Source: Escherichia coli (lineage in GTDB: Bacteria; Pseudomonadota; Gammaproteobacteria; Enterobacterales; Enterobacteriaceae). From it: a stretch of 64,000 nt of DNA. Of this stretch, positions 801 through 21,258 are shown in pieces. The translations under genes were made by a program, and so were the position numbers. Within the stretch, counting starts at the first letter, position 1. Each line of letters opens with the position of its first letter. The notes under the pieces are model-generated. The model did not search any database. It was not told the origin of the DNA and saw nothing but the letters and a program-made list of their open reading frames with translations. The DNA is taken from NCBI RefSeq assembly GCF_013315695.1, contig NZ_CP054353.1. One strand, given 5' to 3'.

Positions 801-1415
<615 letters not shown>

Positions 1416-1432
1416 CCGGACACGATCTTGAT

Positions 1433-1456
1433 GTGGACTGTAGATATTCAGTCCAC
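1433..1456. terminator. Hairpin between convergent azoR and ynbD (possible bidirectional terminator)
   Basis: Inverted repeat gtggactg / agtccac with 9-nt loop immediately after the azoR stop; no strong T-tract. Confidence 0.3.
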
Positions 1457-1468
1457 ATCTCAATCCGC

Positions 1469-4532
<3,064 letters not shown>

Positions 4533-4547
4533 TTTCTCTATTTTCCT

Positions 4548-5444
4548 TCAGTAACAGCAGTAGCGAATAAAATAAAAAAATACCGGAGCGGTGAAAATTA
4601 ATGAGTCAATCCTGTCAAGGAGTCCGCCATGTCCTGGTAATAGTTTTCCACTATCTTTAACACCAATATCTCGTTTGATGGCTGACATCACTACATCGCC
4701 GCAAAAACCACTTACCCCAATCAGTAACCCCGCCAATAATGCCTGCCAGGCGTTTAAGGGTGTCAATAACGGTCCAATGATCATCGACGCTATCATGGTG
4801 GTGATTACGCCGCCCATCAGACCTTCCAGTGTTTTTCCCGGGCTGACTTTGGGGACCACTTTTCTTCTGCCGCAGGATTTTCCCCATAAATACTGTGCAA
4901 TATCGTTTGACTCGGTTAATGCCAAAAGAAATAACACCAGTAACGCCCCGCCCTGGATATTTGTGGTTGGCAACATTAATAACCAGGCGGCATGACTCAA
5001 GGCGAAAACGGTCATTATCCAGCCACAAAAAATGGCACTCACGGTATGCAGAAAACCAGAGGGGTCACCCACTAAAACTCGCCAGGTGGCTAATATCAGA
5101 AACCCAGCCAAAGGTATAAATAACAGAAACAGCTCAAAGCAATTAAAACCGATAAGCAAATAGTTAAGAGGAATACCCCAATATAACCAACGCGGAAAAT
5201 GTACGGATATAAGCGTACAATATTCTTTCAATGCCAGAAAACTTATCAGCGCAAAAAACGTCAACGTCATCCAGCGTGGACCTGAAATCACCATTGAAAA
5301 ACAAATGACGATGCCCCACCAGGTACGAATACGTAATGTAACCTCACCCCCTTTTCCCTCCGGTAACCGCCATATCAGAAAACGGTTTATCAGCGTTGCT
5401 AAAATTAACAACGCGAAAAGTGTTGCCAGAGATTTTTCCAGCAT
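4548..5444 (-). CDS. ynbB: CDP-diglyceride synthetase (CdsA)-like membrane protein
   Basis: 298-aa polytopic membrane ORF; ATG at 5442-5444 overlaps the ynbA stop by 1 nt (operon coupling). Confidence 0.85.
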   Translation of the reverse strand: MLEKSLATLFALLILATLINRFLIWRLPEGKGGEVTLRIRTWWGIVICFSMVISGPRWMTLTFFALISFLALKEYCTLISVHFPRWLYWGIPLNYLLIGFNCFELFLLFIPLAGFLILATWRVLVGDPSGFLHTVSAIFCGWIMTVFALSHAAWLLMLPTTNIQGGALLVLFLLALTESNDIAQYLWGKSCGRRKVVPKVSPGKTLEGLMGGVITTMIASMIIGPLLTPLNAWQALLAGLLIGVSGFCGDVVMSAIKRDIGVKDSGKLLPGHGGLLDRIDSLIFTAPVFFYFIRYCCY

Positions 5445-6049
5445 TATCTTTCAGCACTCATCAGGAGCACACTTCGACAACGATTAATCGCAGTCCAGAG
5501 AAGCAAAATTGAAGCAATGCTCCATAAAAGATTATTCCATTGCATCCACTGTGGATAAATGGCAACAGCCAGCCCCCACAACCCAAATATTAACGCACGA
5601 TCGCTTTTGCCGAATGGACCGGCATAACTGCGAATACCGTTAATCGTCTGCGCGAGTAAACCGCAAAACTCAGTTAATATGGTGCAAAATAACATGAGTA
5701 TTACGAGTGATGCGTTACTTTCCGGTAAAAATAAAAACGGTAAATAAAGCGCAATATCGGAAATAACATCGCCAGTTTCATTCAAAATCGCCCCAAGACG
5801 TGTTTGCTGATTGCACTCACGCGCCATCATGCCATCCAGCGCATTGAGCGCCATACGGATAAAAAGCACGATAGGCAATAGCAAAAAGAGGATGGGTTGT
5901 GCCACCAACATCAACAGCAATCCGGTAAGAAGAGAAAGCGCCAGTGCAGCAAGAGTGATGTGATTCGCTGTAACATGGTGCTTATTAAGCCAAAACATCG
6001 TCGGCCTTAACAGCGACTGAAAGAGCGGTTTTATCTGGTAGAGCGTCAT
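5444..6049 (-). CDS. ynbA: CDP-alcohol phosphatidyltransferase-family membrane protein
   Basis: ORF track 5444..6055; ATG at 6047-6049 gives 201 aa (MTLYQIKPL...); CDP-alcohol phosphatidyltransferase-like motif region DGMMARE. Confidence 0.8.
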   Translation of the reverse strand: MTLYQIKPLFQSLLRPTMFWLNKHHVTANHITLAALALSLLTGLLLMLVAQPILFLLLPIVLFIRMALNALDGMMARECNQQTRLGAILNETGDVISDIALYLPFLFLPESNASLVILMLFCTILTEFCGLLAQTINGIRSYAGPFGKSDRALIFGLWGLAVAIYPQWMQWNNLLWSIASILLLWTAINRCRSVLLMSAER

Positions 6050-6219
6050 TATCAATCCTTGATAATTCGGTTTGCGCTATGGTGCATCAATTCCCCTGAC
6101 GGAGATATCGCAACACGCCGCTTCATTAAAAATTCAGAATATATCAAGGTATTGGGGACTCACCGTCAGGAATGATTATCCCCAATAAATCAAGTGGTTA
6201 AAAATTATTACGCTGTTAT

Positions 6220-6597
6220 TCAATACAACTCATTAAGTTTTCTCATCGCTTGTTCCCGTATTGCGCGCGTCTTACCGTTAAGCGCCAGCTGGCGGACTAA
6301 ATCCAGTTCAGGGTTAACAAGCTCTAACGCCAGCAAAGGATCACGTTTCAGCCTCGCCTTCAATACATCAACTGGGAAACGGGGATCATTCATCGCCATA
6401 ATCCACCACTCGGGATCAATTTCTGCCGCTAGTGCCGCAGACGGTGTATGGCGATTGTTAAGTGCGCCGAACTTGAAAAATGTAAGATTGCTTTTCGCCA
6501 GCGTACTCCACCATATACGATCCGGTTGTTTTGCCAGTTTATCCAGTTGCGCTAATGCATCGGAGTCAAGTGCATAATAAACACGTAACGCTTCGTT
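6220..6597 (-). pseudogene. ydbD: 3-prime remnant of ydbD, truncated by IS1
   Basis: Reverse-strand frame is open from the IS1 boundary (6597) to TGA at 6220-6222 (...TNEALRVYYALDSDALAQLDKLAKQPDRIWW...KLNELY*), with no start codon; position matches the gene preceding ynbA in K-12. Confidence 0.6.
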
Positions 6598-6652
6598 GGT
6601 GATGCTGCCAACTTACTGATTTAGTGTATGATGGTGTTTTTGAGGTGCTCCA

Positions 6653-6928
6653 GTGGCTTCTGTTTCTATCAGCTGTCCCTCCTGTTCAGCTACTGACGGG
6701 GTGGTGCGTAACGGCAAAAGCACCGCCGGACATCAGCGCTATCTCTGCTCTCACTGCCGTAAAACATGGCAACTGCAGTTCACTTACACCGCTTCTCAAC
6801 CCGGTACGCACCAGAAAATCATTGATATGGCCATGAATGGCGTTGGATGCCGGGCAACAGCCCGCATTATGGGCGTTGGCCTCAACACGATTTTACGTCA
6901 CTTAAAAAACTCAGGCCGCAGTCGGTAA
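6653..6928 (+). CDS. insA: IS1 InsA (transposition inhibitor / N-terminal part of InsAB transposase)
   Basis: 91-aa [42 protein letters not shown]..., zinc-finger CxxC...CxxC; A6C slippery site ttaaaaaac near its 3-prime end. Confidence 0.95.
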
Positions 6929-7350
6929 CCTCGCGCATACAGCCGGGCAGTGACGTCATCGTCTGCGCGGAAATGGACGAACAGTGGGGCTATGTCGGGG
7001 CTAAATCGCGCCAGCGCTGGCTGTTTTACGCGTATGACAGGCTCCGGAAGACGGTTGTTGCGCACGTATTCGGTGAACGCACTATGGCGACGCTGGGGCG
7101 TCTTATGAGCCTGCTGTCACCCTTTGACGTGGTGATATGGATGACGGATGGCTGGCCGCTGTATGAATCCCGCCTGAAGGGAAAGCTGCACGTAATCAGC
7201 AAGCGATATACGCAGCGAATTGAGCGGCATAACCTGAATCTGAGGCAGCACCTGGCACGGCTGGGACGGAAGTCGCTGTCGTTCTCAAAATCGGTGGAGC
7301 TGCATGACAAAGTCATCGGGCATTATCTGAACATAAAACACTATCAATAA
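6847..7350 (+). CDS. insB: IS1 InsB frame (expressed as InsAB by -1 frameshift)
   Basis: 167-aa ORF in -1 frame relative to insA, ending ...HYLNIKHYQ. Confidence 0.9.
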
Positions 7351-7505
7351 GTTGGAGTCATTACCACTTGAACCGATAATAAACGCAGAAATTCTATTTT
7401 GTAGCTCATTGTTGCCTCCTGTGTGAATTGTTCGAATCTACCAGGCTGCGATGAAAGAAGTCGTGTAGTAGAGAGCTATACCCGCAACAAGCGGGGCAGA
7501 CGTTC

Positions 7506-7829
7506 TTATTTCTGTAACCATTTTCCGTTAATGCCCTGCACATATTCTCCTGATTTAGCGCGAGCTACGAGCTTTTGCCCGGCAAGTTTCGCGATATCAT
7601 CTACCGACACATTATTTTGCTTTGCCAGTTGTTGATAGCTCGCTTTACGTTCGGCATTAATGTCGGTTACTAATTTCTCTGTTTCAGCATCTGTTTTCAG
7701 CGCAACCAGATAACCATAAAATGTTTCCCCTACCCGCCCCTGAGTTCTGGCTTCATCCAGAGTCAATGCCATTACATTGCTGCTTACCAAGCCAACAAGA
7801 AATGCACAAAGAAGTAATGTTCTTTTCAT
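7506..7829 (-). CDS. ydbL: Periplasmic protein YdbL (DUF1318)
   Basis: ORF track 7506..7910; start set at MKRTLLLCAFLVG... signal peptide (107 aa), last gene of ydbH-ynbE-ydbL. Confidence 0.85.
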   Translation of the reverse strand: MKRTLLLCAFLVGLVSSNVMALTLDEARTQGRVGETFYGYLVALKTDAETEKLVTDINAERKASYQQLAKQNNVSVDDIAKLAGQKLVARAKSGEYVQGINGKWLQK

Positions 7830-7836
7830 CATCACC

Positions 7837-8022
7837 TCAAAAAAGATCGCTACGGGTCTCAAGCAGCTCTTCGACATCTTTGTCTGCCTTGATGATGATC
7901 TCATGCTCAATTTTAACGTTCATATTGATAGTGATCGGTTCCTTAGGTGCAGCGACTTCAATGCGAGGCGTACAGCCAACCAGCATAAAAGATGACGTCA
8001 ACGCAGCCAGTAAAATTTTCAT
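7837..8022 (-). CDS. ynbE: Lipoprotein YnbE
   Basis: 61-aa ORF MKILLAALTSSFMLVGC... with lipobox LVGC; overlaps the ydbH stop by 4 nt. Confidence 0.85.
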   Translation of the reverse strand: MKILLAALTSSFMLVGCTPRIEVAAPKEPITINMNVKIEHEIIIKADKDVEELLETRSDLF

Positions 8023-10658
8023 TGTTTTTCCTCACACTCTTTTCCTTGCGGACAGTCATTTCCCGGCAGACGCGCGTTCTGCTCCAGCCATGCCTGGAGA
8101 TTATCGCCAAAGCGTAAACTGCGCCACAGCGTAAAAATATTCTCTTCATGATGGTAATTAAGATTTACCGTACCGCTTTTACCATCAACGCGACTGGTAC
8201 CTGTAATGTTGGCCTGCATGGTTAATAAACCGAGATTATCTAAATTAATTTTTGTCGATGAACGGCTAATTTCCATATAGCGCAACCAGTTAATTGCTGA
8301 ACCCGCGGTCATATTGTCTTTCACCACCGCATCTGCGGTGTCTTTATCCAGCCGCAAGGTCATCGGCCCGCTATTTGCCAGCCAGCCGTCTTTCACTATC
8401 CATTTTTCGTTGTTTAGCCATAACGGCAATGCACCACTAAATGCCCCGGACATGGCGAATTGTTTCGGATTGACGGCGCTAACCAGTTCGCTGGAGGAAA
8501 GATTATTCAGCCGCAACAGCGCCGGGTCATGTTGCGGCATACGTAATTGTTTCATCAGCACGTTACCGCCTAACACATCAACGCTAACATCAGTCAACAG
8601 CAATGGTTCTTCTTCAGTCCACGGATAACGACCTTGCAAATCAGCCGTAATATTTTTCGCTGTCACCAGATTAATCACTTCGGCAATTCGCAACGTAACG
8701 GGGCCGCGAGTCCCCAGATGCCAGGCTCCATCGGCAAAACGGAAAGGCAGGACAAAATCGACACCGTTAACCTGATTATCTGGCATCCAGGCACTACCGC
8801 CTTTCAACACACCGTGCCCTCCCGCGCGGAATCCTTGTTCAGGCGCAGCAGAAAATGCGACCTGGGCATATAGTTCGCCATCGCGTAAGTTCATCTTCCA
8901 GTCGGGTGGCACCAGCGGCTGGAATACGGTCAGTGATTGTTTAGGCCACCAGGCGTTACCGCGCAGACGAATACCGTCCCAGCGACCATTTACCCGAACC
9001 GGGCCAATCTCACCAGCATGTAAATCGCCTTTAAAGAGGAAATACGTCGGATCGCGTCCATCGACGCTAAATTTTAAGGTTGATGGCGGTAACACACTGC
9101 CGCCAGTGAACAGCGTTTGCCCGGCGTCCAGTGACAGCGCGCCGCTAAAGGAGGGATGCTGTGCGTCACGTACCCAGACGACGGGCTTGTCGAGAATTAG
9201 TCGCGGCTTTTCAACCGTCATCGTACCGTATTGTAACTGGTCGAAACCGGTGGAGAGATCGGTCAGCGTAATCGTGCTGTCATGCCACTCACCCTTTCCT
9301 GCGACATCCCAGGTGGCATTCATCGGTGTAAAACTGCCTTTTCCCCAGTAGCGCCACTGCCAGCGGCCAGCGTCAGGGAGAAAATCATTCGCCAGTCCAT
9401 CCATATGCAGCACGAAATCGCCCAGTTCATTTTCATGCGCCTGCAAAATGGCCTGCAAACGTCCGTCAACACCACGTTGGGTGACTTTTACACCCGCTAA
9501 AGGCCAGCGGATTTCATCGATGTCCAGCGAATCAATGACTCTTCCCTTTGAACGAAGTAACGCGCCTGGCTCAAAGGTCAACGTTGGGTCAGACAGACTT
9601 CCACTTAGCTGCGCAGGTAAACGGGCATATAAAATGAGGTCCGCCTGTTTCGCTTCACCGGTCAGTTGCATAGGCAGCTGGCTGTTATCCATGCTTAATT
9701 TTCCTGGGCCAAAATTAAGCACCGCGTTGCCTTTACCCGCTTGCCCCTGGGTCAGCACACTCAGTCGTCCGCTGACCAGAGCGTTCTCGAGCCCTGCCTG
9801 CCAGTTGTCGACTTTGACACCCAGTCGGCCACTCAAAGGAAAACCTGCATACGGCCAGCTCCAGCGACCATCGCTTACGGTCAATTGTTGACGAGTAATT
9901 TGCCACGGCAAATCGAGCAACGGATCGCCGTTATCCCGTGCCAGCACGATCAATTGCCCGCTATTTTCCTGCCAGTCCAGCTCTGCATCCACCAGTGACG
10001 GTTCCTGCGGCAAGTTTAACGTCGCAGTAGCATGCCCACTTACCGGAAGTCCATCCGGCACGAGCGGCATAGTAAATTCCCCCTCCAGTTTAACCGGCGG
10101 CTGATTTTCAAACGCGACGACATCCAGTTCGCTGACTGTAAGTTGTTGCCCTTTCAGCTGGCCTTGAAATTTAACTTTTTCGCCCTGATAACGCAGTTGC
10201 TGGATATCGGAGGTTAATGCGAGAGAGAGTTTTCCCTGCCATTCCTGCCAGGGAGAAAAAATCAGTTTATCGATATTGATCCAAGTGTTAGGCAACATGG
10301 CCTGCCACTGCGCGAGGTTTTTTGGAGCGGCTGGCGATTGCTCCGTCTGCGGCAATTTCGCCAGACAAGTAGAATCAAGTTCTACCGTGCCGACGTTCAA
10401 TAACCAGCGGCTGGGATGTGAAAGGCTGGCGTTGGTGATATGCGCAAGCTGACAATCTCCCACCAGATAACGGAGATCGGGAATGATTAAACCTTTACGC
10501 GTAATGCGTGGGCTTTCATCTAATGCAATACGTGTCCCGAGCGGTAGCCAGATGCCCGCCAGCGTGGGAACCCACAGCCCGAGCGTCATCAGCAGCGTCA
10601 ACGGCACAAGAATAATCAGTAATAACAGCGCGAGAACGGCTTTATATTTACCCAGCAT
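8019..10658 (-). CDS. ydbH: AsmA/TamB-like large envelope protein YdbH
   Basis: 879-aa ORF with N-terminal TM anchor (MLGKYKAVLALLLLIILVPL...); divergent from ldhA as in K-12. Confidence 0.9.
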   Translation of the reverse strand: MLGKYKAVLALLLLIILVPLTLLMTLGLWVPTLAGIWLPLGTRIALDESPRITRKGLIIPDLRYLVGDCQLAHITNASLSHPSRWLLNVGTVELDSTCLAKLPQTEQSPAAPKNLAQWQAMLPNTWINIDKLIFSPWQEWQGKLSLALTSDIQQLRYQGEKVKFQGQLKGQQLTVSELDVVAFENQPPVKLEGEFTMPLVPDGLPVSGHATATLNLPQEPSLVDAELDWQENSGQLIVLARDNGDPLLDLPWQITRQQLTVSDGRWSWPYAGFPLSGRLGVKVDNWQAGLENALVSGRLSVLTQGQAGKGNAVLNFGPGKLSMDNSQLPMQLTGEAKQADLILYARLPAQLSGSLSDPTLTFEPGALLRSKGRVIDSLDIDEIRWPLAGVKVTQRGVDGRLQAILQAHENELGDFVLHMDGLANDFLPDAGRWQWRYWGKGSFTPMNATWDVAGKGEWHDSTITLTDLSTGFDQLQYGTMTVEKPRLILDKPVVWVRDAQHPSFSGALSLDAGQTLFTGGSVLPPSTLKFSVDGRDPTYFLFKGDLHAGEIGPVRVNGRWDGIRLRGNAWWPKQSLTVFQPLVPPDWKMNLRDGELYAQVAFSAAPEQGFRAGGHGVLKGGSAWMPDNQVNGVDFVLPFRFADGAWHLGTRGPVTLRIAEVINLVTAKNITADLQGRYPWTEEEPLLLTDVSVDVLGGNVLMKQLRMPQHDPALLRLNNLSSSELVSAVNPKQFAMSGAFSGALPLWLNNEKWIVKDGWLANSGPMTLRLDKDTADAVVKDNMTAGSAINWLRYMEISRSSTKINLDNLGLLTMQANITGTSRVDGKSGTVNLNYHHEENIFTLWRSLRFGDNLQAWLEQNARLPGNDCPQGKECEEKQ

Positions 10659-10865
10659 GGGTAGTTAATATCCTGATTTAGCGAAAAATTAAGCATTCAA
10701 TACGGGTATTGTGGCATGTTTAACCGTTCAGTTGAAGGTTGCGCCTACACTAAGCATAGTTGTTGATGAATTTTTCAATATCGCCATAGCTTTCAATTAT
10801 ATTTGAAATTTTGTAAGATATTTTTAGTAGCTTAAATGTGATTCAACATCACTGGAGAAAGTCTT

Positions 10866-11855
10866 ATGAAACTCGCCGTTTATAGCACAAAACAGTACGA
10901 CAAGAAGTACCTGCAACAGGTGAACGAGTCCTTTGGCTTTGAGCTGGAATTTTTTGACTTTCTGCTGACGGAAAAAACCGCTAAAACTGCCAATGGCTGC
11001 GAAGCGGTATGTATTTTCGTAAACGATGACGGCAGCCGCCCGGTGCTGGAAGAGCTGAAAAAGCACGGCGTTAAATATATCGCCCTGCGCTGTGCCGGTT
11101 TCAATAACGTCGACCTTGACGCGGCAAAAGAACTGGGGCTGAAAGTAGTCCGTGTTCCAGCCTATGATCCAGAAGCCGTTGCTGAACACGCCATCGGTAT
11201 GATGATGACGCTGAACCGCCGTATTCACCGCGCGTATCAGCGTACCCGTGACGCCAACTTCTCTCTGGAAGGTCTGACCGGCTTTACTATGTATGGCAAA
11301 ACGGCAGGCGTTATCGGTACCGGTAAAATCGGTGTGGCGATGCTGCGCATTCTGAAAGGTTTTGGTATGCGTCTGCTGGCGTTCGATCCGTATCCAAGTG
11401 CGGCGGCGCTGGAACTCGGTGTAGAGTATGTCGATCTGCCAACCCTGTTCTCTGAATCAGACGTTATCTCTCTGCACTGCCCGCTGACACCGGAAAACTA
11501 CCACCTGTTGAACGAAGCCGCCTTCGATCAGATGAAAAATGGCGTGATGATCGTCAATACCAGTCGCGGTGCATTGATTGATTCTCAGGCAGCAATTGAA
11601 GCGCTGAAAAATCAGAAAATTGGTTCGTTGGGTATGGACGTGTATGAAAACGAACGCGATCTGTTCTTTGAAGATAAATCCAACGACGTAATCCAGGATG
11701 ACGTATTCCGTCGTCTGTCTGCCTGCCACAACGTGCTGTTTACCGGGCACCAGGCATTCCTGACAGCAGAAGCTCTGACCAGTATTTCTCAGACTACGCT
11801 GCAAAACTTAAGCAATCTGGAAAAAGGCGAAACCTGCCCGAACGAACTGGTTTAA
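10866..11855 (+). CDS. ldhA: Fermentative D-lactate dehydrogenase (NAD-dependent)
   Basis: 329-aa ORF MKLAVYSTKQYDKKYLQQVNESFGFELEFF... with GxGxxG NAD-binding motif (GVIGTGKIG). Confidence 0.97.
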   Translation: MKLAVYSTKQYDKKYLQQVNESFGFELEFFDFLLTEKTAKTANGCEAVCIFVNDDGSRPVLEELKKHGVKYIALRCAGFNNVDLDAAKELGLKVVRVPAYDPEAVAEHAIGMMMTLNRRIHRAYQRTRDANFSLEGLTGFTMYGKTAGVIGTGKIGVAMLRILKGFGMRLLAFDPYPSAAALELGVEYVDLPTLFSESDVISLHCPLTPENYHLLNEAAFDQMKNGVMIVNTSRGALIDSQAAIEALKNQKIGSLGMDVYENERDLFFEDKSNDVIQDDVFRRLSACHNVLFTGHQAFLTAEALTSISQTTLQNLSNLEKGETCPNELV

Positions 11856-11863
11856 TCTTGCCG

Positions 11864-11890
11864 CTCCCCTGCATTCCAGGGGAGCTTATT
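11864..11890 (+). terminator. Putative ldhA terminator hairpin
   Basis: Stem ctcccctg / caggggag with 5-nt loop, 8 nt after the ldhA stop, followed by cttattc. Confidence 0.4.
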
Positions 11891-11965
11891 CAGATAATCC
11901 CCAAAGACCTTTCATCCTCTATTCTTAAAATAGCCCTGAGTCAGAAACTGTAATTGAGAACCACA

Positions 11966-12388
11966 ATGAAGAAAGTAGCCGCGTTTGTTGCGCTAAGCCT
12001 GCTGATGGCGGGATGTGTAAGTAATGACAAAATTGCTGTAACCCCAGAACAGCTACAGCATCATCGCTTTGTGCTGGAAAGCGTAAACGGTAAGCCCGTG
12101 ACCAGCGATAAAAATCCGCCAGAAATCAGCTTTGGTGAAAAAATGATGATTTCCGGCAGCATGTGTAACCGCTTTAGCGGTGAAGGCAAACTGTCTAATG
12201 GTGAACTGACAGCCAAAGGACTGGCAATGACCCGTATGATGTGCGCCAACCCACAGCTTAATGAACTCGATAACACCATTAGCGAAATGCTGAAAGAAGG
12301 TGCACAAGTGGATCTGACCGCGAACCAGTTAACGCTGGCGACCGCGAAACAGACATTAACTTATAAGCTGGCGGATTTAATGAATTAA
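11966..12388 (+). CDS. hslJ: Heat-shock lipoprotein HslJ
   Basis: ORF track 11954..12388; ATG at 11966 gives MKKVAAFVALSLLMAGC... (140 aa) with lipobox. Confidence 0.9.
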   Translation: MKKVAAFVALSLLMAGCVSNDKIAVTPEQLQHHRFVLESVNGKPVTSDKNPPEISFGEKMMISGSMCNRFSGEGKLSNGELTAKGLAMTRMMCANPQLNELDNTISEMLKEGAQVDLTANQLTLATAKQTLTYKLADLMN

Positions 12389-12651
12389 TAGCTGCCACAG
12401 CTCCCGGCGGCAAGTGACTGTTCGCTACAGCGTTTGCCGTTGGGTAATGCACACATCCCAATCGCCGTACCATCCAGTTGACGGGCAACAGAAAGCGAAC
12501 CGCCGATCATTGCACAATTTGCTTCTCCACTACTGGACATCGACGCTTTTAAACCTGGCGCTACGTGCGCCGCAGTCGCCTGCTGAACAGGTTCACTATT
12601 ACACGCCGACAATAATAAAGCGGCACACCCTACCCAAAACGCTGCTCGCAT
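12385..12651 (-). CDS. ydbJ: Small periplasmic/lipoprotein YdbJ (DUF333)
   Basis: 88-aa ORF MRAAFWVGCAALLLSACNSEPVQ...; convergent with hslJ, 4-nt overlap. Confidence 0.85.
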   Translation of the reverse strand: MRAAFWVGCAALLLSACNSEPVQQATAAHVAPGLKASMSSSGEANCAMIGGSLSVARQLDGTAIGMCALPNGKRCSEQSLAAGSCGSY

Positions 12652-12923
12652 CTTTTCTTCCTCTGATCTTCAAGCCAAACGACACCGCCATAAATAATAG
12701 GCAGCACAGAGGGCGACGTCGAGAGCTGTCCTGCGCGTTGCCCCGCATTTTTACTTTTTTATGGCTATTTTTTGCCCTCTGTTTGATCAAAACATTCATT
12801 ACGCTGATGTGGGGGACACAAAAGCGAAAATGCAGAAGAAAGCCATTTGCTAAAATTGAAGGATTACTACTGGGCGCGCAGCAATTTCGTGCGCCCCTCA
12901 TTTGCGCAATGTAAGGGTGTCAT

Positions 12924-15900
12924 ATGATTACTATTGACGGTAATGGCGCGGTTGCTTCGGTGGCGTTTCGCACCAGTGAAGTTATCGCCATCTACCCTAT
13001 TACCCCCAGTTCCACGATGGCAGAACAGGCTGATGCCTGGGCCGGAAACGGCTTGAAGAACGTTTGGGGAGACACACCACGCGTGGTTGAAATGCAGTCG
13101 GAAGCGGGTGCTATCGCTACCGTGCATGGCGCTTTGCAGACGGGTGCCCTTTCAACATCGTTTACGTCATCGCAGGGTTTGCTGCTGATGATCCCGACGC
13201 TGTACAAACTGGCAGGCGAACTGACGCCATTTGTCCTGCATGTAGCGGCACGTACCGTTGCCACACATGCACTCTCTATTTTTGGCGATCATTCCGACGT
13301 TATGGCGGTGCGCCAGACGGGTTGCGCGATGTTGTGTGCGGCTAACGTCCAGGAAGTGCAAGACTTTGCTCTCATTTCGCACATCGCAACGCTGAAGAGC
13401 CGCGTGCCATTTATTCATTTCTTTGATGGTTTCCGCACGTCCCACGAAATCAATAAAATTGTCCCGCTGGCCGATGACACTATTCTTGATCTCATGCCGC
13501 AGGCCGAAATTGATGCTCATCGCGCCCGGGCGCTCAACCCGGAACATCCGGTGATCCGCGGTACGTCCGCCAATCCTGACACTTATTTCCAGTCTCGCGA
13601 AGCCACCAACCCCTGGTACAACGCGGTCTATGACCATGTTGAACAGGCGATGAATGATTTCGCTGCCGCGACAGGTCGTCAGTATCAACCGTTTGAGTAT
13701 TATGGGCATCCGCAAGCGGAACGGGTGATTATCCTGATGGGCTCAGCCATTGGCACCTGTGAAGAAGTGGTTGATGAATTGCTAACCCGTGGCGAAAAAG
13801 TCGGCGTGCTGAAAGTTCGCCTGTACCGTCCCTTCTCCGCCAAACACTTGCTACAAGCTCTGCCGGGATCCGTACGCAGCGTGGCGGTACTGGACAGAAC
13901 CAAAGAACCCGGTGCCCAGGCAGAACCGCTCTATCTGGATGTGATGACCGCACTGGCAGAAGCCTTTAATAATGGCGAGCGCGAAACCCTGCCCCGTGTC
14001 ATTGGTGGGCGCTATGGTCTTTCATCCAAAGAATTTGGCCCGGACTGTGTACTGGCGGTATTTGCCGAGCTCAACGCGGCTAAACCGAAAGCGCGCTTTA
14101 CGGTTGGTATTTACGATGATGTGACCAATCTGTCACTGCCGTTGCCGGAAAACACCCTGCCAAACTCGGCGAAACTTGAAGCCTTGTTTTATGGCCTTGG
14201 TAGTGATGGCAGCGTTTCCGCGACCAAAAACAATATCAAGATTATCGGTAATTCCACGCCGTGGTACGCACAGGGCTATTTTGTTTACGACTCCAAAAAG
14301 GCGGGCGGCCTGACGGTTTCTCATCTTCGTGTGAGCGAACAGCCGATTCGTTCCGCTTATCTGATTTCCCAGGCTGATTTTGTTGGCTGCCACCAGTTGC
14401 AGTTTATCGATAAATATCAGATGGCTGAACGTTTAAAACCTGGCGGCATTTTCCTGCTCAACACGCCGTACAGCGCAGATGAAGTATGGTCGCGCTTGCC
14501 GCAGGAAGTTCAGGCCGTGTTAAACCAGAAAAAAGCGCGCTTCTATGTGATTAACGCGGCGAAAATCGCCCGCGAATGTGGCCTGGCGGCCCGTATTAAT
14601 ACCGTCATGCAGATGGCTTTTTTCCATCTTACGCAAATTCTGCCTGGCGATAGCGCCCTCGCAGAATTGCAGGGTGCGATTGCCAAAAGTTACAGTAGCA
14701 AAGGCCAGGATCTGGTGGAACGCAACTGGCAGGCTCTGGCGCTGGCACGTGAATCCGTAGAAGAAGTTCCGCTGCAACCAGTAAATCCGCACAGCGCCAA
14801 TCGACCGCCAGTGGTTTCCGATGCCGCCCCTGATTTCGTGAAAACCGTAACCGCGGCGATGCTCGCCGGGCTTGGTGATGCCCTCCCCGTTTCGGCGCTG
14901 CCGCCAGACGGCACCTGGCCGATGGGCACCACGCGCTGGGAAAAACGCAATATCGCCGAAGAGATCCCCATCTGGAAAGAGGAACTCTGCACCCAATGTA
15001 ACCACTGCGTCGCTGCTTGCCCACACTCAGCTATTCGCGCAAAAGTGGTACCGCCTGAAGCGATGGAAAACGCCCCTGCCAGCCTGCATTCGCTGGATGT
15101 GAAATCGCGTGATATGCGCGGGCAGAAATATGTCTTGCAGGTGGCTCCGGAAGATTGCACGGGTTGTAACCTGTGCGTCGAAGTTTGCCCGGCGAAAGAC
15201 CGTCAGGATCCAGAGATTAAAGCCATCAATATGATGTCGCGGCTGGAACATGTCGAGGAAGAGAAAATCAATTACGACTTCTTCCTGAATTTACCAGAAA
15301 TCGATCGCAGCAAACTGGAACGTATTGATATTCGTACATCGCAACTGATTACACCGCTGTTTGAATATTCAGGTGCTTGCTCTGGTTGTGGCGAGACGCC
15401 GTATATTAAATTGCTGACTCAGCTCTATGGCGATCGGATGTTGATCGCTAACGCTACGGGTTGTTCTTCAATTTATGGTGGTAACCTGCCCTCCACACCA
15501 TATACCACTGATGCCAACGGTCGTGGACCGGCATGGGCGAACTCGCTGTTTGAAGATAACGCCGAATTCGGCCTTGGTTTCCGCCTTACGGTCGATCAAC
15601 ACCGTGTCCGCGTGCTGCGTCTGCTGGATCAATTTGCCGATAAAATCCCGGCGGAATTACTGACTGCGTTGAAATCAGACGCTACGCCAGAGATTCGTCG
15701 TGAACAGGTTGCAGCTTTACGCCAGCAACTCAACGATGTTGCCGAAGCACATGAACTGCTACGTGACGCAGATGCTCTGGTGGAAAAATCAATCTGGCTG
15801 ATTGGTGGTGACGGCTGGGCTTACGATATCGGCTTTGGTGGTCTGGATCATGTATTGAGTTTGACGGAAAACGTCAACATTCTGGTGCTGGATACGCAAT

Positions 15901-16448
15901 GCTATTCCAACACCGGTGGTCAGGCGTCGAAAGCGACACCGCTGGGTGCAGTAACTAAGTTCGGCGAGCACGGCAAACGTAAAGCGCGTAAAGATCTTGG
16001 CGTCAGTATGATGATGTACGGTCATGTTTATGTGGCGCAGATTTCTCTCGGCGCGCAGCTGAACCAGACGGTGAAAGCGATTCAGGAAGCGGAAGCGTAT
16101 CCGGGACCATCGCTGATCATTGCTTATAGCCCGTGTGAAGAGCATGGTTACGATCTGGCTCTCAGCCACGACCAGATGCGCCAACTCACTGCTACCGGCT
16201 TCTGGCCGCTATATCGCTTCGATCCTCGTCGTGCCGATGAAGGCAAACTGCCGCTGGCGCTGGATTCACGCCCGCCGTCAGAAGCACTGGAAGAAACGTT
16301 ACTTCATGAGCAACGTTTCCGTCGTCTGAATTCGCAGCAGCCAGAAGTGGCAGAACAGTTATGGAAAGATGCTGCAGCTGATTTGCAAAAACGCTATGAC
16401 TTCCTGGCACAAATGGCCGGAAAAGCGGAAAAAAGCAACACCGATTAA
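12924..16448 (+). CDS. ydbK: Pyruvate:flavodoxin/ferredoxin oxidoreductase
   Basis: 1174-aa ORF with tandem 4Fe-4S ferredoxin motifs (CTQCNHCVAACP, CTGCNLCVEVCP) and a TPP-binding region; matches K-12 YdbK (Pfo) in length. Confidence 0.95.
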   Translation: MITIDGNGAVASVAFRTSEVIAIYPITPSSTMAEQADAWAGNGLKNVWGDTPRVVEMQSEAGAIATVHGALQTGALSTSFTSSQGLLLMIPTLYKLAGELTPFVLHVAARTVATHALSIFGDHSDVMAVRQTGCAMLCAANVQEVQDFALISHIATLKSRVPFIHFFDGFRTSHEINKIVPLADDTILDLMPQAEIDAHRARALNPEHPVIRGTSANPDTYFQSREATNPWYNAVYDHVEQAMNDFAAATGRQYQPFEYYGHPQAERVIILMGSAIGTCEEVVDELLTRGEKVGVLKVRLYRPFSAKHLLQALPGSVRSVAVLDRTKEPGAQAEPLYLDVMTALAEAFNNGERETLPRVIGGRYGLSSKEFGPDCVLAVFAELNAAKPKARFTVGIYDDVTNLSLPLPENTLPNSAKLEALFYGLGSDGSVSATKNNIKIIGNSTPWYAQGYFVYDSKKAGGLTVSHLRVSEQPIRSAYLISQADFVGCHQLQFIDKYQMAERLKPGGIFLLNTPYSADEVWSRLPQEVQAVLNQKKARFYVINAAKIARECGLAARINTVMQMAFFHLTQILPGDSALAELQGAIAKSYSSKGQDLVERNWQALALARESVEEVPLQPVNPHSANRPPVVSDAAPDFVKTVTAAMLAGLGDALPVSALPPDGTWPMGTTRWEKRNIAEEIPIWKEELCTQCNHCVAACPHSAIRAKVVPPEAMENAPASLHSLDVKSRDMRGQKYVLQVAPEDCTGCNLCVEVCPAKDRQDPEIKAINMMSRLEHVEEEKINYDFFLNLPEIDRSKLERIDIRTSQLITPLFEYSGACSGCGETPYIKLLTQLYGDRMLIANATGCSSIYGGNLPSTPYTTDANGRGPAWANSLFEDNAEFGLGFRLTVDQHRVRVLRLLDQFADKIPAELLTALKSDATPEIRREQVAALRQQLNDVAEAHELLRDADALVEKSIWLIGGDGWAYDIGFGGLDHVLSLTENVNILVLDTQCYSNTGGQASKATPLGAVTKFGEHGKRKARKDLGVSMMMYGHVYVAQISLGAQLNQTVKAIQEAEAYPGPSLIIAYSPCEEHGYDLALSHDQMRQLTATGFWPLYRFDPRRADEGKLPLALDSRPPSEALEETLLHEQRFRRLNSQQPEVAEQLWKDAAADLQKRYDFLAQMAGKAEKSNTD

Positions 16449-16476
16449 ATGCTCTGGATAAGGATCATCCAATTCT

Positions 16477-16581
16477 AAAAAAAAGCCCGGACGACGGTTC
16501 GGGCTTGTCTCATTATTTGTTGGATAAACAGTAACAAGGGTCCAACAGAAAATAATCTTTGTGACAATAAAGGCATATAAC
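16477..16581 (-). ncRNA. micC: MicC sRNA (Hfq-dependent repressor of ompC)
   Basis: Reverse complement reads GTTATATGCCTTTATTGTCAC... and ends in hairpin GCCCGAACCGTCGTCCGGGC plus T8; the 5-prime seed and terminator match MicC; lies between ydbK and ompN as in K-12. Confidence 0.8.
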
Positions 16582-16838
16582 CCGCGAAGAATAACGCATC
16601 ACTATTTAAATGTATAATTTTTATTTTGTATATGTCGCCAACAATATATTCACCAGACTTATTATCATTTCAGAAGAATTATTTGATTAAGGTTTTACTT
16701 AAGGCGTAACAAATAATATTTATCGTCTAACTGAACTTCTCCTTTAGGATGCTTTCACTCCCCGAAATGGGGATAAAAGGCAAGGTGATGCTGCCAACTT
16801 ACTGATTTAGTGTATGATGGTGTTTTTGAGGTGCTCCA

Positions 16839-17114
16839 GTGGCTTCTGTTTCTATCAGCTGTCCCTCCTGTTCAGCTACTGACGGGGTGGTGCGTAACGG
16901 CAAAAGCACCGCCGGACATCAGCGCTATCTCTGCTCTCACTGCCGTAAAACATGGCAACTGCAGTTCACTTACACCGCTTCTCAACCCGGTACGCACCAG
17001 AAAATCATTGATATGGCCATGAATGGCGTTGGATGCCGGGCAACAGCCCGCATTATGGGCGTTGGCCTCAACACGATTTTACGTCACTTAAAAAACTCAG
17101 GCCGCAGTCGGTAA
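16839..17114 (+). CDS. insA: IS1 InsA
   Basis: 91-aa ORF identical to the InsA of copy 1. Confidence 0.95.
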
Positions 17115-17536
17115 CCTCGCGCATACAGCCGGGCAGTGACGTCATCGTCTGCGCGGAAATGGACGAACAGTGGGGCTATGTCGGGGCTAAATCGCGCCAG
17201 CGCTGGCTGTTTTACGCGTATGACAGGCTCCGGAAGACGGTTGTTGCGCACGTATTCGGTGAACGCACTATGGCGACGCTGGGGCGTCTTATGAGCCTGC
17301 TGTCACCCTTTGACGTGGTGATATGGATGACGGATGGCTGGCCGCTGTATGAATCCCGCCTGAAGGGAAAGCTGCACGTAATCAGCAAGCGATATACGCA
17401 GCGAATTGAGCGGCATAACCTGAATCTGAGGCAGCACCTGGCACGGCTGGGACGGAAGTCGCTGTCGTTCTCAAAATCGGTGGAGCTGCATGACAAAGTC
17501 ATCGGGCATTATCTGAACATAAAACACTATCAATAA
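17033..17536 (+). CDS. insB: IS1 InsB frame
   Basis: 167-aa ORF identical to the InsB of copy 1. Confidence 0.9.
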
Positions 17537-17551
17537 GTTGGAGTCATTACC

Positions 17552-18357
17552 TCGATTACGGACGTAATTATGGCGTAATGTACGACATCGAAGGCTGGAC
17601 CGATATGCTGCCTGAATTTGGCGGTGACTCTTATACCAATGCAGACAACTTTATGACTGGTCGTGCCAACGGCGTCGCGACTTATCGTAATACTGATTTC
17701 TTCGGTCTGGTAAATGGTCTGAACTTCGCAGTGCAGTATCAAGGTAACAACGAAGGTGCCAGTAATGGTCAGGAAGGCACCAACAACGGACGTGATGTTC
17801 GCCATGAAAACGGTGACGGCTGGGGTCTTTCCACAACATATGATTTAGGCATGGGCTTTAGCGCTGGTGCGGCATACACCTCATCTGACCGCACCAATGA
17901 CCAGGTTAACCATACTGCGGCAGGTGGTGATAAAGCAGACGCGTGGACTGCTGGGCTAAAATACGATGCTAACAATATTTACCTGGCAACCATGTATTCA
18001 GAAACACGTAACATGACCCCGTTTGGCGACAGCGATTATGCAGTTGCGAACAAAACCCAGAACTTTGAAGTTACTGCACAGTACCAGTTTGATTTTGGTC
18101 TGCGTCCGGCAGTCTCTTTCCTGATGTCTAAAGGCCGTGACCTTCACGCTGCCGGTGGTGCAGACAACCCGGCAGGTGTTGATGATAAAGATCTGGTTAA
18201 ATACGCCGATGTTGGCGCGACTTACTATTTCAACAAAAATATGTCCACCTACGTTGACTATAAAATCAACCTGTTGGATGAAGATGACAGCTTCTACGCT
18301 GCCAACGGCATCTCTACCGATGATATTGTCGCTTTAGGTCTGGTTTATCAGTTCTAA
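17552..18357 (+). pseudogene. ompN: Outer-membrane porin OmpN, 5-prime-truncated by IS1 (about 110 N-terminal codons missing)
   Basis: Frame is open from the first base after IS1 (..[25 protein letters not shown]...LGLVYQF*), which aligns to the middle and C-terminus of OmpC-family porins; no signal peptide or promoter remains. Confidence 0.85.
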
Positions 18358-18365
18358 ATCCTCCT

Positions 18366-18390
18366 GCCCGCTGTTATGGCGGGCTTTTTC
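18366..18390 (+). terminator. Rho-independent terminator after ompN
   Basis: Stem gcccgc / gcgggc with 6-nt loop followed by TTTTT. Confidence 0.6.
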
Positions 18391-18416
18391 TGCTTATTCT
18401 TCCTCCTTTGATCTAA

Positions 18417-18932
<516 letters not shown>

Positions 18933-18939
18933 CACTAAC

Positions 18940-18965
18940 GCCCGCACATTGCTGCGGGCTTTTTG
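18940..18965 (+). terminator. Rho-independent terminator after uspF
   Basis: Stem gcccgca / tgcgggc with 6-nt loop followed by TTTTT. Confidence 0.6.
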
Positions 18966-19107
18966 ATTCATTTCGCAAATGTGCTGACATTTTCCCCTCT
19001 AATCCGTACCATACACGCCACAGTTTTTATATCAGATTTCTTATGCTGGGCGTTCCGGCATGACGCATACTCTTCTGATGCCATATAACGAATTGAGTCG
19101 CTTTTAA

Positions 19108-19161
19108 ATGTCGCAAAATCAAGAAATTAGTAAGAAAGAACAATACAACCTGAACAAGTAA
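19108..19161 (+). pseudogene. ttcC: ttcA-like 5-prime fragment marking the prophage attR
   Basis: ATG TCG CAA AAT CAA GAA ATT AGT AAG AAA GAA CAA TAC AAC CTG AAC AAG TAA encodes [17 protein letters not shown], a diverged copy of the TtcA N-terminus ([17 protein letters not shown]) at 33431. Confidence 0.7.
19132..19157. repeat. Prophage attachment core, right copy (26-bp direct repeat)
   Basis: aagaaagaacaatacaacctgaacaa, identical to 33455..33480 inside the ttcA start. Confidence 0.75.
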
Positions 19162-19257
19162 GGGCAAAAATCACAACTCTCTGACTCATAAGTATTTTAC
19201 TTATTTTTCAATGTGTTAAATATCATCAGCGACAACAATAAGCTACGATAACCCACT

Positions 19258-19310
19258 CTTTTTTTGCCCCTTTTTTGCCCCTTTTGCAGCGCTTTGCCCC
19301 ATTTTTGCCA
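19258..19310. repeat. Cluster of four TTTTGCC(CC) direct repeats
   Basis: tttttgcccc ttttttgcccc ttttgcagcgc tttgcccc atttttgcca; between attR and the sitA regulatory region. Confidence 0.4.
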
Positions 19311-19421
19311 TCAACAATTTTCCTCATCAAGTCATTTCAAAGCCTAATAGGTGCCCTACTTTTTTCCTCAGTACCACGTCGCCAGCAGGAAACAACCTAA
19401 TCCCGGTTCGGATCTAAAATT

Positions 19422-19440
19422 GCTAATGATAATCATTTTC
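19422..19440 (+). promoter_or_regulatory. Fur box upstream of sitA
   Basis: gctaatgataatcattttc matches the 19-bp Fur consensus GATAATGATAATCATTATC at 16/19 positions. Confidence 0.6.
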
Positions 19441-19462
19441 ATTTTGTATTGCTTATGCTATA

Positions 19463-19484
19463 AAACATAGCCGTTGCTATGTTT
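19463..19484 (+). promoter_or_regulatory. MntR operator upstream of sitA
   Basis: Perfect palindrome aaacatagc-cgtt-gctatgttt, the MntR-box architecture, 33 bp upstream of the sitA ATG. Confidence 0.7.
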
Positions 19485-19516
19485 GTTCTAATTTTGCTCA
19501 CTATAGGTACTAAATT

Positions 19517-20431
19517 ATGTACTCAATAAAAAAAGTAACCATGCTCTTGGGGTGCCTCGCCCTCACCTGCTCGATCGCATTTCAGGCGAGTGCAACTGAA
19601 AAATTCAAGGTCATTACAACATTTACCATCATCGCAGATATGGCCAAAAACGTGGCTGGAGATGCTGCAGAAGTCTCATCCATAACCAAGCCCGGTGCAG
19701 AAATTCATGAGTATCAGCCTACCCCTGGCGATATTAAACGTGCGCAGGAGGCACAACTGATTCTCGCCAATGGTATGAATCTGGAATTGTGGTTCCAACG
19801 CTTTTACCAGCATCTTAATGGGGTTCCAGAAGTAATTGTCTCTTCGGGTGTGACGCCAGTAGGGATCACTGAAGGCCCCTATGAGGGCAAACCTAACCCC
19901 CATGCCTGGATGTCGCCAGATAATGCTCTGATTTACGTCGATAATATTCGTGATGCGTTGATAAAATACGATCCGGCAAATGCACAAACCTACCAACGTA
20001 ATGCCGATACTTATAAAGCCAAGATTACCCAAACCCTTGCCCCCCTGCGTAAGCAGATTGCTGAACTCCCTGAGAATCAGCGATGGATGGTCACCAGTGA
20101 AGGGGCTTTTTCTTATCTCGCACGCGATTTGGGGCTAAAAGAGCTTTATCTGTGGCCGATTAATGCCGATCAACAAGGCACGCCGCAGCAGGTACGTAAG
20201 GTTGTTGATATGGTGAAGAAAAATCATATCCCGGCAGTCTTTAGCGAGAGTACGATTTCCGATAAACCAGCGCGTCAGGTTGCGCGTGAAACCGGCGCGC
20301 ACTACGGCGGTGTACTCTATGTCGATTCCCTGAGCACAGAAAACGGCCCGGTACCTACGTATATCGACCTTCTGAAGGTTACTACCAGTACGCTGGTACA
20401 GGGAATTAAAGCCGGGAAAAGGGAGAAATAA
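19517..20431 (+). CDS. sitA: Mn/Fe ABC transporter periplasmic substrate-binding protein SitA
   Basis: 304-aa ORF with signal peptide, cluster-9 metal-binding family (SitA/YfeA/MntC-like). Confidence 0.9.
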
Positions 20432-21258
20432 TGATGCAATCTGCGGGCATTGTCGTTAATGATGTTACTGTCACCTGGCGTAACGGGCACACAGCACTGC
20501 GCGATGCATCCTTCACAGTACCAAGTGGATCTATTGCCGCTCTGGTTGGGGTAAACGGTTCCGGAAAATCGACGTTGTTTAAAGCGATTATGGGATTTGT
20601 GCGTCTGACCAGCGGAAAGATATCTGTTCTGGGTATTCCCACGCGACAGGCGCTACAGAAAAACCTGGTTGCCTACGTCCCTCAGTCAGAAGAGGTTGAC
20701 TGGTCATTTCCTGTACTAGTGGAAGATGTGGTGATGATGGGCCGCTATGGGCACATGGGTATGTTGCGTATAGCCAAAAAGAGGGATCGTCAGATTGTCA
20801 CCGATGCGCTGGAACGTGTCGATATGGTGGATTTTCGCCATCGACAAATCGGCGAGCTTTCCGGTGGACAAAAGAAACGCGTCTTTCTGGCGAGAGCGAT
20901 TGCACAGCAGGGTGATGTGATCCTGCTGGATGAACCTTTTACCGGCGTTGATGTGAAAACCGAAGCGAAAATCATCAGCCTGTTGAGGGAGTTACGCGCG
21001 GAAGGCAAGACGATGCTTGTCTCAACGCACAATCTCGGCTCAGTCACGACATTTTGCGATTATACGGTCATGGTCAAAGGCACCGTCCTGGCAAGCGGGC
21101 CGACAGACACCACTTTTACAGCCGAGAACCTGGAGCTGGCTTTTAGCGGCGTACTGCGCCATGTCACACTTAACGCCTCGGAAGAAAGCATTATTACTGA
21201 CGATGAACACCCTTTTGTGGCACATCGACCGTCAGCGGTGCAGAGGGAAGCAAGATGA
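20431..21258 (+). CDS. sitB: Mn/Fe ABC transporter ATP-binding protein SitB
   Basis: 275-aa ORF with Walker [13 protein letters not shown] signature LSGGQKKR and Walker B ILLDEP. Confidence 0.9.

Follow-up and report, generated by a model that had tools for sequence, protein, structure and literature searches.

Two identical IS1 elements in direct orientation enclose a stretch of Escherichia coli chromosome in the 64,000-nucleotide DNA analysed here (the window), and the question is whether the elements and the DNA between them form a mobile or amplifiable unit or have come to lie near each other through independent insertions. Our analysis indicates that the pair very probably arose as a side effect of two separate IS1 events in a clinical lineage rich in IS1. 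The enclosed 9.4 kb never moved, and is core chromosome lying between the two copies by chance.

A repeat search of the window finds three IS1 copies of 768 bp each, namely copy 1 at 6598-7365 and copy 2 at 16784-17551, both on the plus strand, and copy 3 at 25134-25901 on the minus strand. Over 768 nt, copies 1 and 2 both match the complement of the inverted copy 3 at 100%, which makes all three copies identical. The sequence-only reading had reported two identical elements in the same orientation 10.2 kb apart, which agrees with a direct pair matching at 100% over 768 bp and spaced by 10,186 bp from start to start. The elements have the length of IS1, its imperfect terminal inverted repeats of ~23 bp, and insA and insB' frames connected through a -1 frameshift at an A6C motif. 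In copy 1, which is intact by the repeat search and by its sequence features, IRL (GGTGATGCTGCCAACTTACTGAT) occupies 6598-6620, insA (91 aa) 6653-6928 and the overlapping insB' frame (167 aa) 6847-7350, with the slippery site AAAAAAC at 6904 and the imperfect repeat IRR at 7343-7365 (reverse complement GGTAATGACTCCAACTTATTGAT). All three copies are complete: the ends, insA/insB' and the A6C site are intact in each. The identical copies in strain MSB1_4I carry the RefSeq label 'IS1A family transposase, programmed frameshift', and the IS1 of the window is 99.0-99.9% identical to the IS1A-family copies of K-12, FDAARGOS_1285 and 042.

Within the chromosome IS1 transposes replicatively, and its insertions produce target-site duplications (TSDs) of 8 or 9 bp (PMC12428005). 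A comparison of the flanks in the window gave no 8- or 9-bp TSD at any of the three copies. The six 9-bp flanks were also cross-matched in direct and reverse-complement orientation, which was meant to reveal reciprocal recombination or inversion between the copies, and no matching pair was found. The missing TSDs are secondary, through deletion, as copy 2 has its TSD in MSB1_4I, and therefore they are no evidence against the IS1 identity of the elements.

Over 64 kb the window differs from MSB1_4I by three substitutions and a 362-bp deletion, and the near-clonal strains MSB1_4I and AF3 both carry copies 1 and 2 at the same positions with unique flanks. MSB1_4I has IS1 in at least 33 places; the median among 5,426 complete E. 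coli genomes is 11 places per genome. The IS1-rich clinical lineage of the window probably belongs to phylogroup F, because it shares a variant with CE10 and SMS-3-5, two phylogroup F strains. A literature search for strain MSB1_4I returned no paper on the strain.

The enclosed block (7366-16783) consists of 9,418 bp of native core chromosome from ydbL to micC, plus the micC-proximal intergenic DNA. It encodes ydbL (7506-7829, minus strand), ynbE (7837-8022, minus), ydbH (8019-10658, minus), ldhA (10866-11855, plus), hslJ (11966-12388, plus), ydbJ (12385-12651, minus), the pyruvate:flavodoxin oxidoreductase gene ydbK/nifJ (12924-16448, plus) and the small RNA gene micC (16469-16584, minus), the last matching the full-length Rfam model RF00121 with 104.1 bits against a gathering score of 90. 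The protein-coding gene names were transferred from the 100%-identical MSB1_4I annotation and agree with the list of open reading frames; together with the Rfam match they confirm the gene content ydbL-ynbE-ydbH, ldhA, hslJ, ydbJ, ydbK and micC proposed earlier from the letters alone. Of the 5,426 complete E. coli genomes, 5,409 hold at least 80% of the block in one place, and the median number of places per genome is one. MS 21-1 and AF10 carry it at the same position, 99.95-99.96% identical, with IS1 at neither site. A comparison with 72,556 plasmids gave no genuine plasmid copy and no IS1-flanked copy of the block. The hits in this collection are mislabelled chromosomes or non-mobilizable chromosome fragments with at most 97.7% identity, and Klebsiella and Salmonella homologues of about 80%.

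We used MS 21-1, which has no IS1 at the sites of copies 1 and 2, as the comparator for copy 1, and give its positions as coordinates of the comparator locus (L010). Window positions 1834-6597 align with L010 1-4764 and window positions 7366-16783 with L010 14001-23418; L010 4765-14000, a segment of 9,236 bp, is missing from the window and copy 1 stands in its place. The lost content comprises the 5' part of ydbD, pdxI and a BigA-like autotransporter gene, while MS 21-1 and AF10 keep an intact ydbD-pdxI-autotransporter-ydbL stretch. What is left of ydbD is the 3'-terminal 378 bp of a DUF2773/bactofilin gene (6220-6597, minus strand), severed by copy 1. In MSB1_4I this remnant is annotated as 'DUF2773, incomplete, missing N-terminus' at positions 12621-12998 of the matching locus (L001; window position + 6401), and the gene is full-length in MS 21-1 (L010 4387-6687). 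Copy 1 is flanked by CGCTTCGTT on the left and ACTTGAACC on the right, with no TSD. Its junction with the ydbD remnant occurs in two of the 5,426 genomes, MSB1_4I and AF3, and no undeleted IS1-bearing intermediate was found among the genomes compared. CE10 was also considered as the ancestral comparator for copy 1 and dropped, having IS3-family insertions of its own and being neither as close nor as clean as MS 21-1 and AF10.

Copy 2 lies between micC and ompN, at the ompN end of the intergenic region. The 9-bp sequence AAAAGGCAA immediately to its left (16775-16783, plus strand) is the surviving left copy of its target duplication. In MSB1_4I the same 9 bp stand on both sides of copy 2 as a perfect TSD, and in the IS1-free MS 21-1 they are present in a single copy at L010 23410-23418. 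In MSB1_4I and AF3 copy 2 is thus a clean insertion 34 bp upstream of an intact ompN; MS 21-1 and AF10 have no IS1 at this site and an intact micC-ompN region, and the ompN gene is intact with 1,134 bp in MSB1_4I, AF3 and MS 21-1. The 5' end of micC faces copy 2, with 199 bp of upstream DNA kept. The primer SD1 of the K-12 micC promoter fragment (PMC5745476) matches window positions 16746-16765 with one mismatch, to the left of the IS1. IS1 is found within about 1 kb of micC-ompN in 17 of the 5,426 genomes besides the lineage of the window, and we do not claim the region as an IS1 hotspot, with roughly a dozen such genomes expected by chance in a rough calculation from a genome of ~5 Mb, the median of 11 IS1 places and 5,426 genomes.

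The window itself has lost DNA to the right of copy 2. Window positions 1-17551 align with L001 6402-23952 and positions 17552-30000 with L001 24315-36763, both at 100%, and L001 23953-24314 is gone. The 362-bp deletion (junction 17551/17552) starts exactly at the IRR of copy 2, its first lost base being the first base after IRR, and it took the right copy of the TSD, 25 bp of the ompN leader and nucleotides 1-328 of ompN. No microhomology was found at its edges, and the IS1-ompN junction of the window occurs in none of the 5,426 genomes. The remnant of ompN (17552-18357, plus strand) runs from codon 110 to the stop, and its frame-3 translation aligns with the full-length OmpN of MS 21-1, starting at residue 111. 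Having no start codon, ribosome-binding site or promoter, it is a pseudogene.

These comparisons show a history in three steps. In the first, read from the alignment with MS 21-1, the common ancestor of MSB1_4I, AF3 and the window genome acquired an IS1 between ydbD and ydbL and lost 9,236 bp, an outcome that left one IS1 without a target duplication. In the second, read from the intact state in the sister genomes, a second IS1 inserted conservatively between micC and ompN in the same ancestor, 34 bp upstream of the ompN ATG, making the 9-bp duplication and cutting ompN off from the shared regulatory region. In the third, which the alignment places in the window genome only, 362 bp reaching from the right end of copy 2 into ompN were deleted. 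The mechanism of this last step would most likely be intramolecular replicative transposition of IS1, the classical 'adjacent deletion', in which the IS is kept and the DNA between its end and the target is removed.

Adjacent deletions start precisely at the end of the element, and IS1/Tn9 is named among those causing intramolecular rearrangements of this type (PMC9330008). The scar at copy 2 has these features: it starts at the exact terminus, the IS is kept, the TSD is lost on the deleted side, and MSB1_4I and AF3 provide the undeleted state. At copy 1, L010 4765-14000 is absent next to the element and the IS1-free MS 21-1 is the undeleted comparator. The mechanism is not readable from the end product, as recombination between two IS1 copies gives the same junction and would be indistinguishable from an adjacent deletion. 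The scars could accordingly have come about through RecA-dependent recombination between two direct IS1 copies rather than through transposase, an alternative that we regard as unlikely. On this route each lost segment would first have gained a second IS1 at its other end, and recombination would then have left one hybrid IS1 without TSD. Recombination between identical ISs is a documented and frequent cause of missing TSDs (PMC11708052), and with at least 33 IS1 copies in the lineage new insertions are common. With 20% G+C, the copy-1 deletion is AT-rich at its right edge, and IS1 favours AT-rich targets, which fits either route. Against recombination, each scar would need two events instead of one, and an intermediate with two IS1 copies is seen in no sequenced relative within the 5,426-genome collection. 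For copy 2 in particular, the three substitutions that separate the window from MSB1_4I in 64 kb leave little time for an insertion followed by recombination. We prefer adjacent deletion by transposase as the origin of the scars.

The sequence-only reading had further proposed the pair as a ready substrate for RecA-mediated deletion or tandem amplification, and as a legitimate substrate it is well founded, by precedent and by 768-bp direct repeats that are 100% identical. Since both copies are intact and identical, they form a passive substrate for RecA-dependent deletion or duplication of the block, and we see no sign that either has taken place. Direct IS1 pairs of the Tn9/R100 type support amplification too. 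An IS1-flanked segment of the R100 type is excised in a recA-dependent manner as a circle with one IS1 (PMC7986276). IS-flanked regions amplify under selection, and the rate of gene duplication in bacteria is about 10^-3 to 10^-5 per cell per division (PMC4322709).

These precedents, duplication rates and recA-dependent excision alike, give some ground to the idea that the block is amplified or deleted in a sub-population of the isolate, with a changed dosage of ldhA, ydbK or micC. Strain PA11, which lacks ydbH' through abgA, further indicates that loss of most of the block is viable. But the window and the two sister assemblies each hold the block once, no recombinant junction is present in the collection, and a selective benefit is not known, so we consider a sub-population of this kind very improbable. 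With the pair in only three genomes, this absence of recombination products has low power and says little about rates; as the junction of copy 1 with the ydbD remnant occurs only in MSB1_4I and AF3, the collection holds no single-IS1 deletion derivative. We give scarcely any credence to the broader proposal that the block is an incipient Tn9-like translocatable unit, or heterogeneously amplified or deleted, in an adaptive remodelling of fermentation and porin regulation. If true, it would combine a shift in ldhA, ydbK and MicC dosage with a knock-out of ompN and a split of the micC-ompN control in a clinical lineage.

Short-read assemblies are classically prone to misjoins at repeats of this kind, 768 bp long and present more than 30 times, and one or both IS1 copies could in principle be a misplaced or collapsed repeat. 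This is hardly credible here, as the four junctions between IS1 and unique DNA at copies 1 and 2 are base-for-base the same in two complete assemblies of independent origin (Australia and the UK), barring the 362-bp deletion, and a misplaced repeat would not account for the 9,236 bp missing at copy 1, a real structural difference from MS 21-1.

The composite-transposon-like description given earlier stands for the geometry, two intact identical direct IS1 copies, but not for an origin as a composite transposon, given the absence of a TSD and the native core block, and the resemblance is architectural only. Although a passenger is bracketed, as in Tn9 and the R100 r-determinant, by outer ends that are intact (IRL in copy 1, IRR in copy 2), there is next to no chance that the 10,954-bp IS1-block-IS1 segment is a genuine Tn9-like transposon that moved into this locus or is being mobilised from it, as its outer flanks CGCTTCGTT and TCGATTACG show no duplication, its passenger is core rather than foreign DNA, which practically every E. 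coli carries at the native position and which the IS1-free relatives MS 21-1 and AF10 have at the same place, its IS1 copies have separate histories with copy 2 having its own TSD in the sister genomes, and the unit was found at no second location in the 5,426 genomes and on no real plasmid. Past transposition of the unit is effectively refuted; it could formally act as a Tn9-like unit, and we see no evidence that it has.

Copy 3 has the opposite orientation to copies 1 and 2, lies at the junction of a prophage remnant and is flanked by GCAAGCGTC and CCCGGCGTT, with no TSD. Copies 2 and 3, which are 7,582 bp apart, and copies 1 and 3 are substrates for inversion, of which we likewise see no sign. 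The third copy, the absence of TSDs, the deletion scar at copy 1 and the 5' truncation of ompN had gone unmentioned in the sequence-only reading.

The pair, a result of two separate IS1 events, is ordinary wear and tear by IS1 and implies no new biology. It is of little importance beyond the strain, and is a clean and fully resolved case of IS1 expansion eroding the chromosome of a clinical E. coli. Its three steps are dated: a 9.2-kb loss, a simple insertion at micC-ompN and a 362-bp deletion, probably an adjacent deletion, that is very recent. The lineage and the isolate can be recognised by the 362-bp junction and by the two IS1 junctions, and the direct and inverted IS1 copies mark the likeliest spots for future deletions, duplications, inversions and assembly errors.

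Other lineages have acquired IS1 independently in the same neighbourhoods. It lies in ynbB in 042 and in the 3' part of ompN in AF10; in LR-28 it separates the ydbD remnant from paaY, and SCZE5 and many others have it between ynbC' and ydbL. Their positions, orientations, variants and deletion extents all differ from those of the window, and none of these IS1-bearing lineages has two direct copies around the ydbL-micC block. Like Tn9 and the r-determinant of R100/NR1, the segment has two intact identical direct IS1 copies around several kb; unlike them, it has a native core passenger, no flanking TSD and no resistance or other selectable cargo, and no plasmid copies or recombinant products of it were found. 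The scars can also be compared with the IS1-adjacent nfsB deletions of 11-66 kb in clinical E. coli, which immediately adjoin IS1 (PMC10569738). The copy-2 deletion differs from the nfsB deletions in being small (362 bp), in lying in the quiescent porin gene ompN and in having its mechanism read from the scar; like IS1-mediated adjacent deletions, it starts at the exact terminus, keeps the IS, has lost the TSD, shows no microhomology and lies in the chromosome of a clinical E. coli.

The DNA around the first two IS1 copies of the window is best explained by two IS1 events that were independent of each other and came with adjacent deletions, rather than by a composite transposon. Scanning all 64 kb for repeats turned up three identical 768-bp elements, copy 1 at 6598-7365 (+), copy 2 at 16784-17551 (+) and copy 3 at 25134-25901 (-), all of them complete IS1 with the terminal inverted repeats GGTGATGCTGCCAACTTACTGAT and GGTAATGACTCCAACTTATTGAT. 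In copy 1, insA lies at 6653-6928 and the insB' frame at 6847-7350, with the A6C frameshift site at 6904. The starts of copies 1 and 2, which are direct repeats, lie 10,186 bp apart, and this confirms the identical same-orientation pair about 10.2 kb apart described in the sequence-only reading. The segment between them (7366-16783; 9,418 bp) carries ydbL (7506-7829, -), ynbE (7837-8022, -), ydbH (8019-10658, -), ldhA (10866-11855, +), hslJ (11966-12388, +), ydbJ (12385-12651, -), ydbK/nifJ (12924-16448, +) and, by Rfam, MicC (16469-16584, -). The coordinates from ydbL to ydbK/nifJ are those annotated in a RefSeq genome that is 100% identical, and the ORF list of the window agrees with them; the gene content claimed earlier, from ydbL to micC, is correct.

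Public genomes already contain this arrangement, with annotation. Over 64 kb, three substitutions and one 362-bp deletion set the window apart from Escherichia coli MSB1_4I (NZ_LR898874.1; rectal swab, Australia), and AF3 (NZ_OZ547117.1; blood culture, UK) is nearly as close over the 29 kb compared. The three IS1 copies occupy the same positions in the complete assemblies of both sister genomes, so that the concern about an assembly artefact is answered as far as possible without reads, and the window is almost certainly correctly assembled. Copy 1 with both its flanks was found in two of 5,426 complete E. coli genomes, MSB1_4I and AF3 only. The 152 bp to the right of copy 1 are a variant of 46 genomes, among them CE10 and SMS-3-5, which we take to be phylogroup F strains; the lineage of the window is thus probably phylogroup F. 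MSB1_4I has IS1 in at least 33 places.

The history of copy 2 can be followed step by step. A simple IS1 insertion makes an 8- or 9-bp target duplication (PMC12428005). Copy 2 in MSB1_4I and AF3 is such an insertion, with the perfect 9-bp duplication AAAAGGCAA on both sides, and the target site is single-copy in the IS1-free relatives (23410-23418 of L010, the MS 21-1 stretch). In both sister genomes ompN is intact (1,134 bp), starting 34 bp past the right end of copy 2. The window lacks the 362 bp at 23953-24314 of L001, a stretch of MSB1_4I, and the first missing base directly follows the right terminal inverted repeat. Lost with this deletion are the right copy of the target duplication, the 25-bp ompN leader and ompN nucleotides 1-328, so internal ompN coding sequence stands directly right of copy 2. 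The remnant (17552-18357) runs from codon 110 onward without promoter or start. We found no microhomology between the edges of the deletion, and its junction occurs in none of the 5,426 genomes of the collection; this truncation is the only part of the arrangement specific to the window. An IS adjacent deletion by definition starts at the terminus of an element that is kept, as the deletion at copy 2 does, and we infer this mechanism here. IS1/Tn9 is among the elements listed as causing intramolecular rearrangements of this type (PMC9330008), and in clinical E. coli, deletions of 11-66 kb that directly adjoin IS1 have been observed as they arose (PMC10569738).

In K-12 a 227-nt intergenic control region is common to micC and ompN, and the two genes are co-regulated (PMC5745476). 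Copy 2 sits at the ompN-proximal end of this region, and in the sister genomes 777 bp separate ompN from it. The primer used for the K-12 micC promoter fragment (PMC5745476) matches 16746-16765, left of copy 2, and hence micC probably keeps its promoter. The truncated ompN of the window is a pseudogene, probably at small phenotypic cost since OmpN is described as a quiescent porin (PMC5745476).

Copy 1 marks a larger loss. The enclosed block is at least 99.9% identical in three genomes without the copy-1 junction, two of which, MS 21-1 and AF10, were examined. Both have ydbD, pdxI, a BigA-like autotransporter gene and ydbL uninterrupted, and an intact micC-ompN intergenic region. Window 1834-6597 aligns with L010 1-4764 and window 7366-16783 with L010 14001-23418, leaving L010 4765-14000 unmatched; copy 1 thus stands in place of 9,236 bp: 1.9 kb at the 5' end of ydbD, pdxI, the autotransporter gene and, upstream of the latter, another 312 bp. 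The scar fits both an adjacent deletion and recombination between two IS1 copies, which cannot be told apart from it, and no intermediate genome was found.

A comparison of the window flanks gave no target duplication for copy 1 (CGCTTCGTT left, ACTTGAACC right), copy 2 (AAAAGGCAA left, TCGATTACG right) or copy 3 (GCAAGCGTC left, CCCGGCGTT right), and cross-pairing the flanks of all three, direct and reverse-complement, gave zero matches. Copy 3, inverted relative to the other two and also without a duplication, lies between a prophage tail-fibre remnant/hypothetical gene and the Rac-like prophage genes ydaF-sieB-kilR-racC-recE; in AF10 both the IS1 event and the deletion at this site are different ones. 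The Rac-type integrase gene intR carries a frameshift in the MSB1_4I annotation (31749-32982 of its stretch L008; window ~32.1-33.4 kb), which probably leaves the prophage remnant immobile. At Rfam gathering score we also found RalA, the RalR antitoxin sRNA of this remnant (31647-31825, -), FnrS (36133-36250, -) and McaS (39628-39723, +). Between uspF and the prophage remnant lies a sitABCD iron/manganese transporter island (window ~19.9-23.3 kb), which MSB1_4I, AF3, AF10 and 042 carry and MS 21-1 and CE10 lack; in the latter two, ttcA comes directly after uspF. The ycj sugar-utilisation cluster (window ~61.5-63.3 kb; L008 1850-3604) has an IS-less internal deletion; in the MSB1_4I annotation, a truncated piece of an ABC permease gene runs directly into ycjT (kojibiose phosphorylase), which lacks its 5' part.

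Many unrelated E. coli lineages have IS1 insertions and deletions of their own in ynbB, ynbC, ydbD or beside ydbL, and the genes next to the IS1 are often truncated. Such IS1 copies lie in ynbB of 042, between the ydbD remnant and paaY in LR-28, and between truncated ynbC and ydbL in SCZE5 and others. AF10 has one in the 3' part of ompN, and 17 genomes have IS1 within ~1 kb of micC-ompN. Given IS1 copy numbers, no clear excess over chance is seen in this neighbourhood. CE10 has ydbL-ldhA bracketed independently by two inverted copies of an IS3-family element (18681-19894 and 24691-25904 of L007), one upstream of ydbL and the other truncating hslJ.

The pair had also been proposed as a ready substrate for RecA-mediated deletion or amplification. 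By precedent it is one: circles with one IS1 form in a recA-dependent way from the R100.1 r-determinant, which direct IS1 copies flank (PMC7986276), and selection amplifies IS-flanked chromosomal regions (PMC4322709). The inverted copy 3 adds inversion substrates with copy 2 (7,582 bp between arms) and copy 1 (17,768 bp). The available genomes hold no recombinant product. The window, MSB1_4I and AF3 each have one copy of the block, and the ydbD'-IS1 junction, which a deletion derivative should keep, was found in MSB1_4I and AF3 alone besides the window, a weak negative with just three genomes carrying the pair. The recombination potential is generic and unrealised in these genomes. In PA11 (NZ_CP119187.1) a large IS-less deletion joins mid-ydbH straight to mid-abgA (8077-8082 of L009), taking ldhA, hslJ, ydbJ, ydbK, micC, ompN, uspF and all up to abgA; losing most of the block is hence viable in nature and the whole region dispensable.

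Movement of the unit as a composite transposon is rejected, as the outer flanks in the window carry no duplication around it, the block is core DNA found single-copy at its own locus in 5,409 of 5,426 complete genomes and in exactly the same place in the closest IS1-free relatives, the histories of copies 1 and 2 are demonstrably separate, and searches of plasmids gave only chromosome-sized or non-mobilizable records (at most 97.7% identity) or distant Klebsiella and Salmonella homologues. Two independent IS1 events, each with an adjacent deletion, in an IS1-rich lineage would account for the structure. The earlier description as composite-transposon-like survives for the architecture, in which copies 1 and 2, a direct IS1 pair with intact outer ends, resemble Tn9 and the R100 r-determinant.
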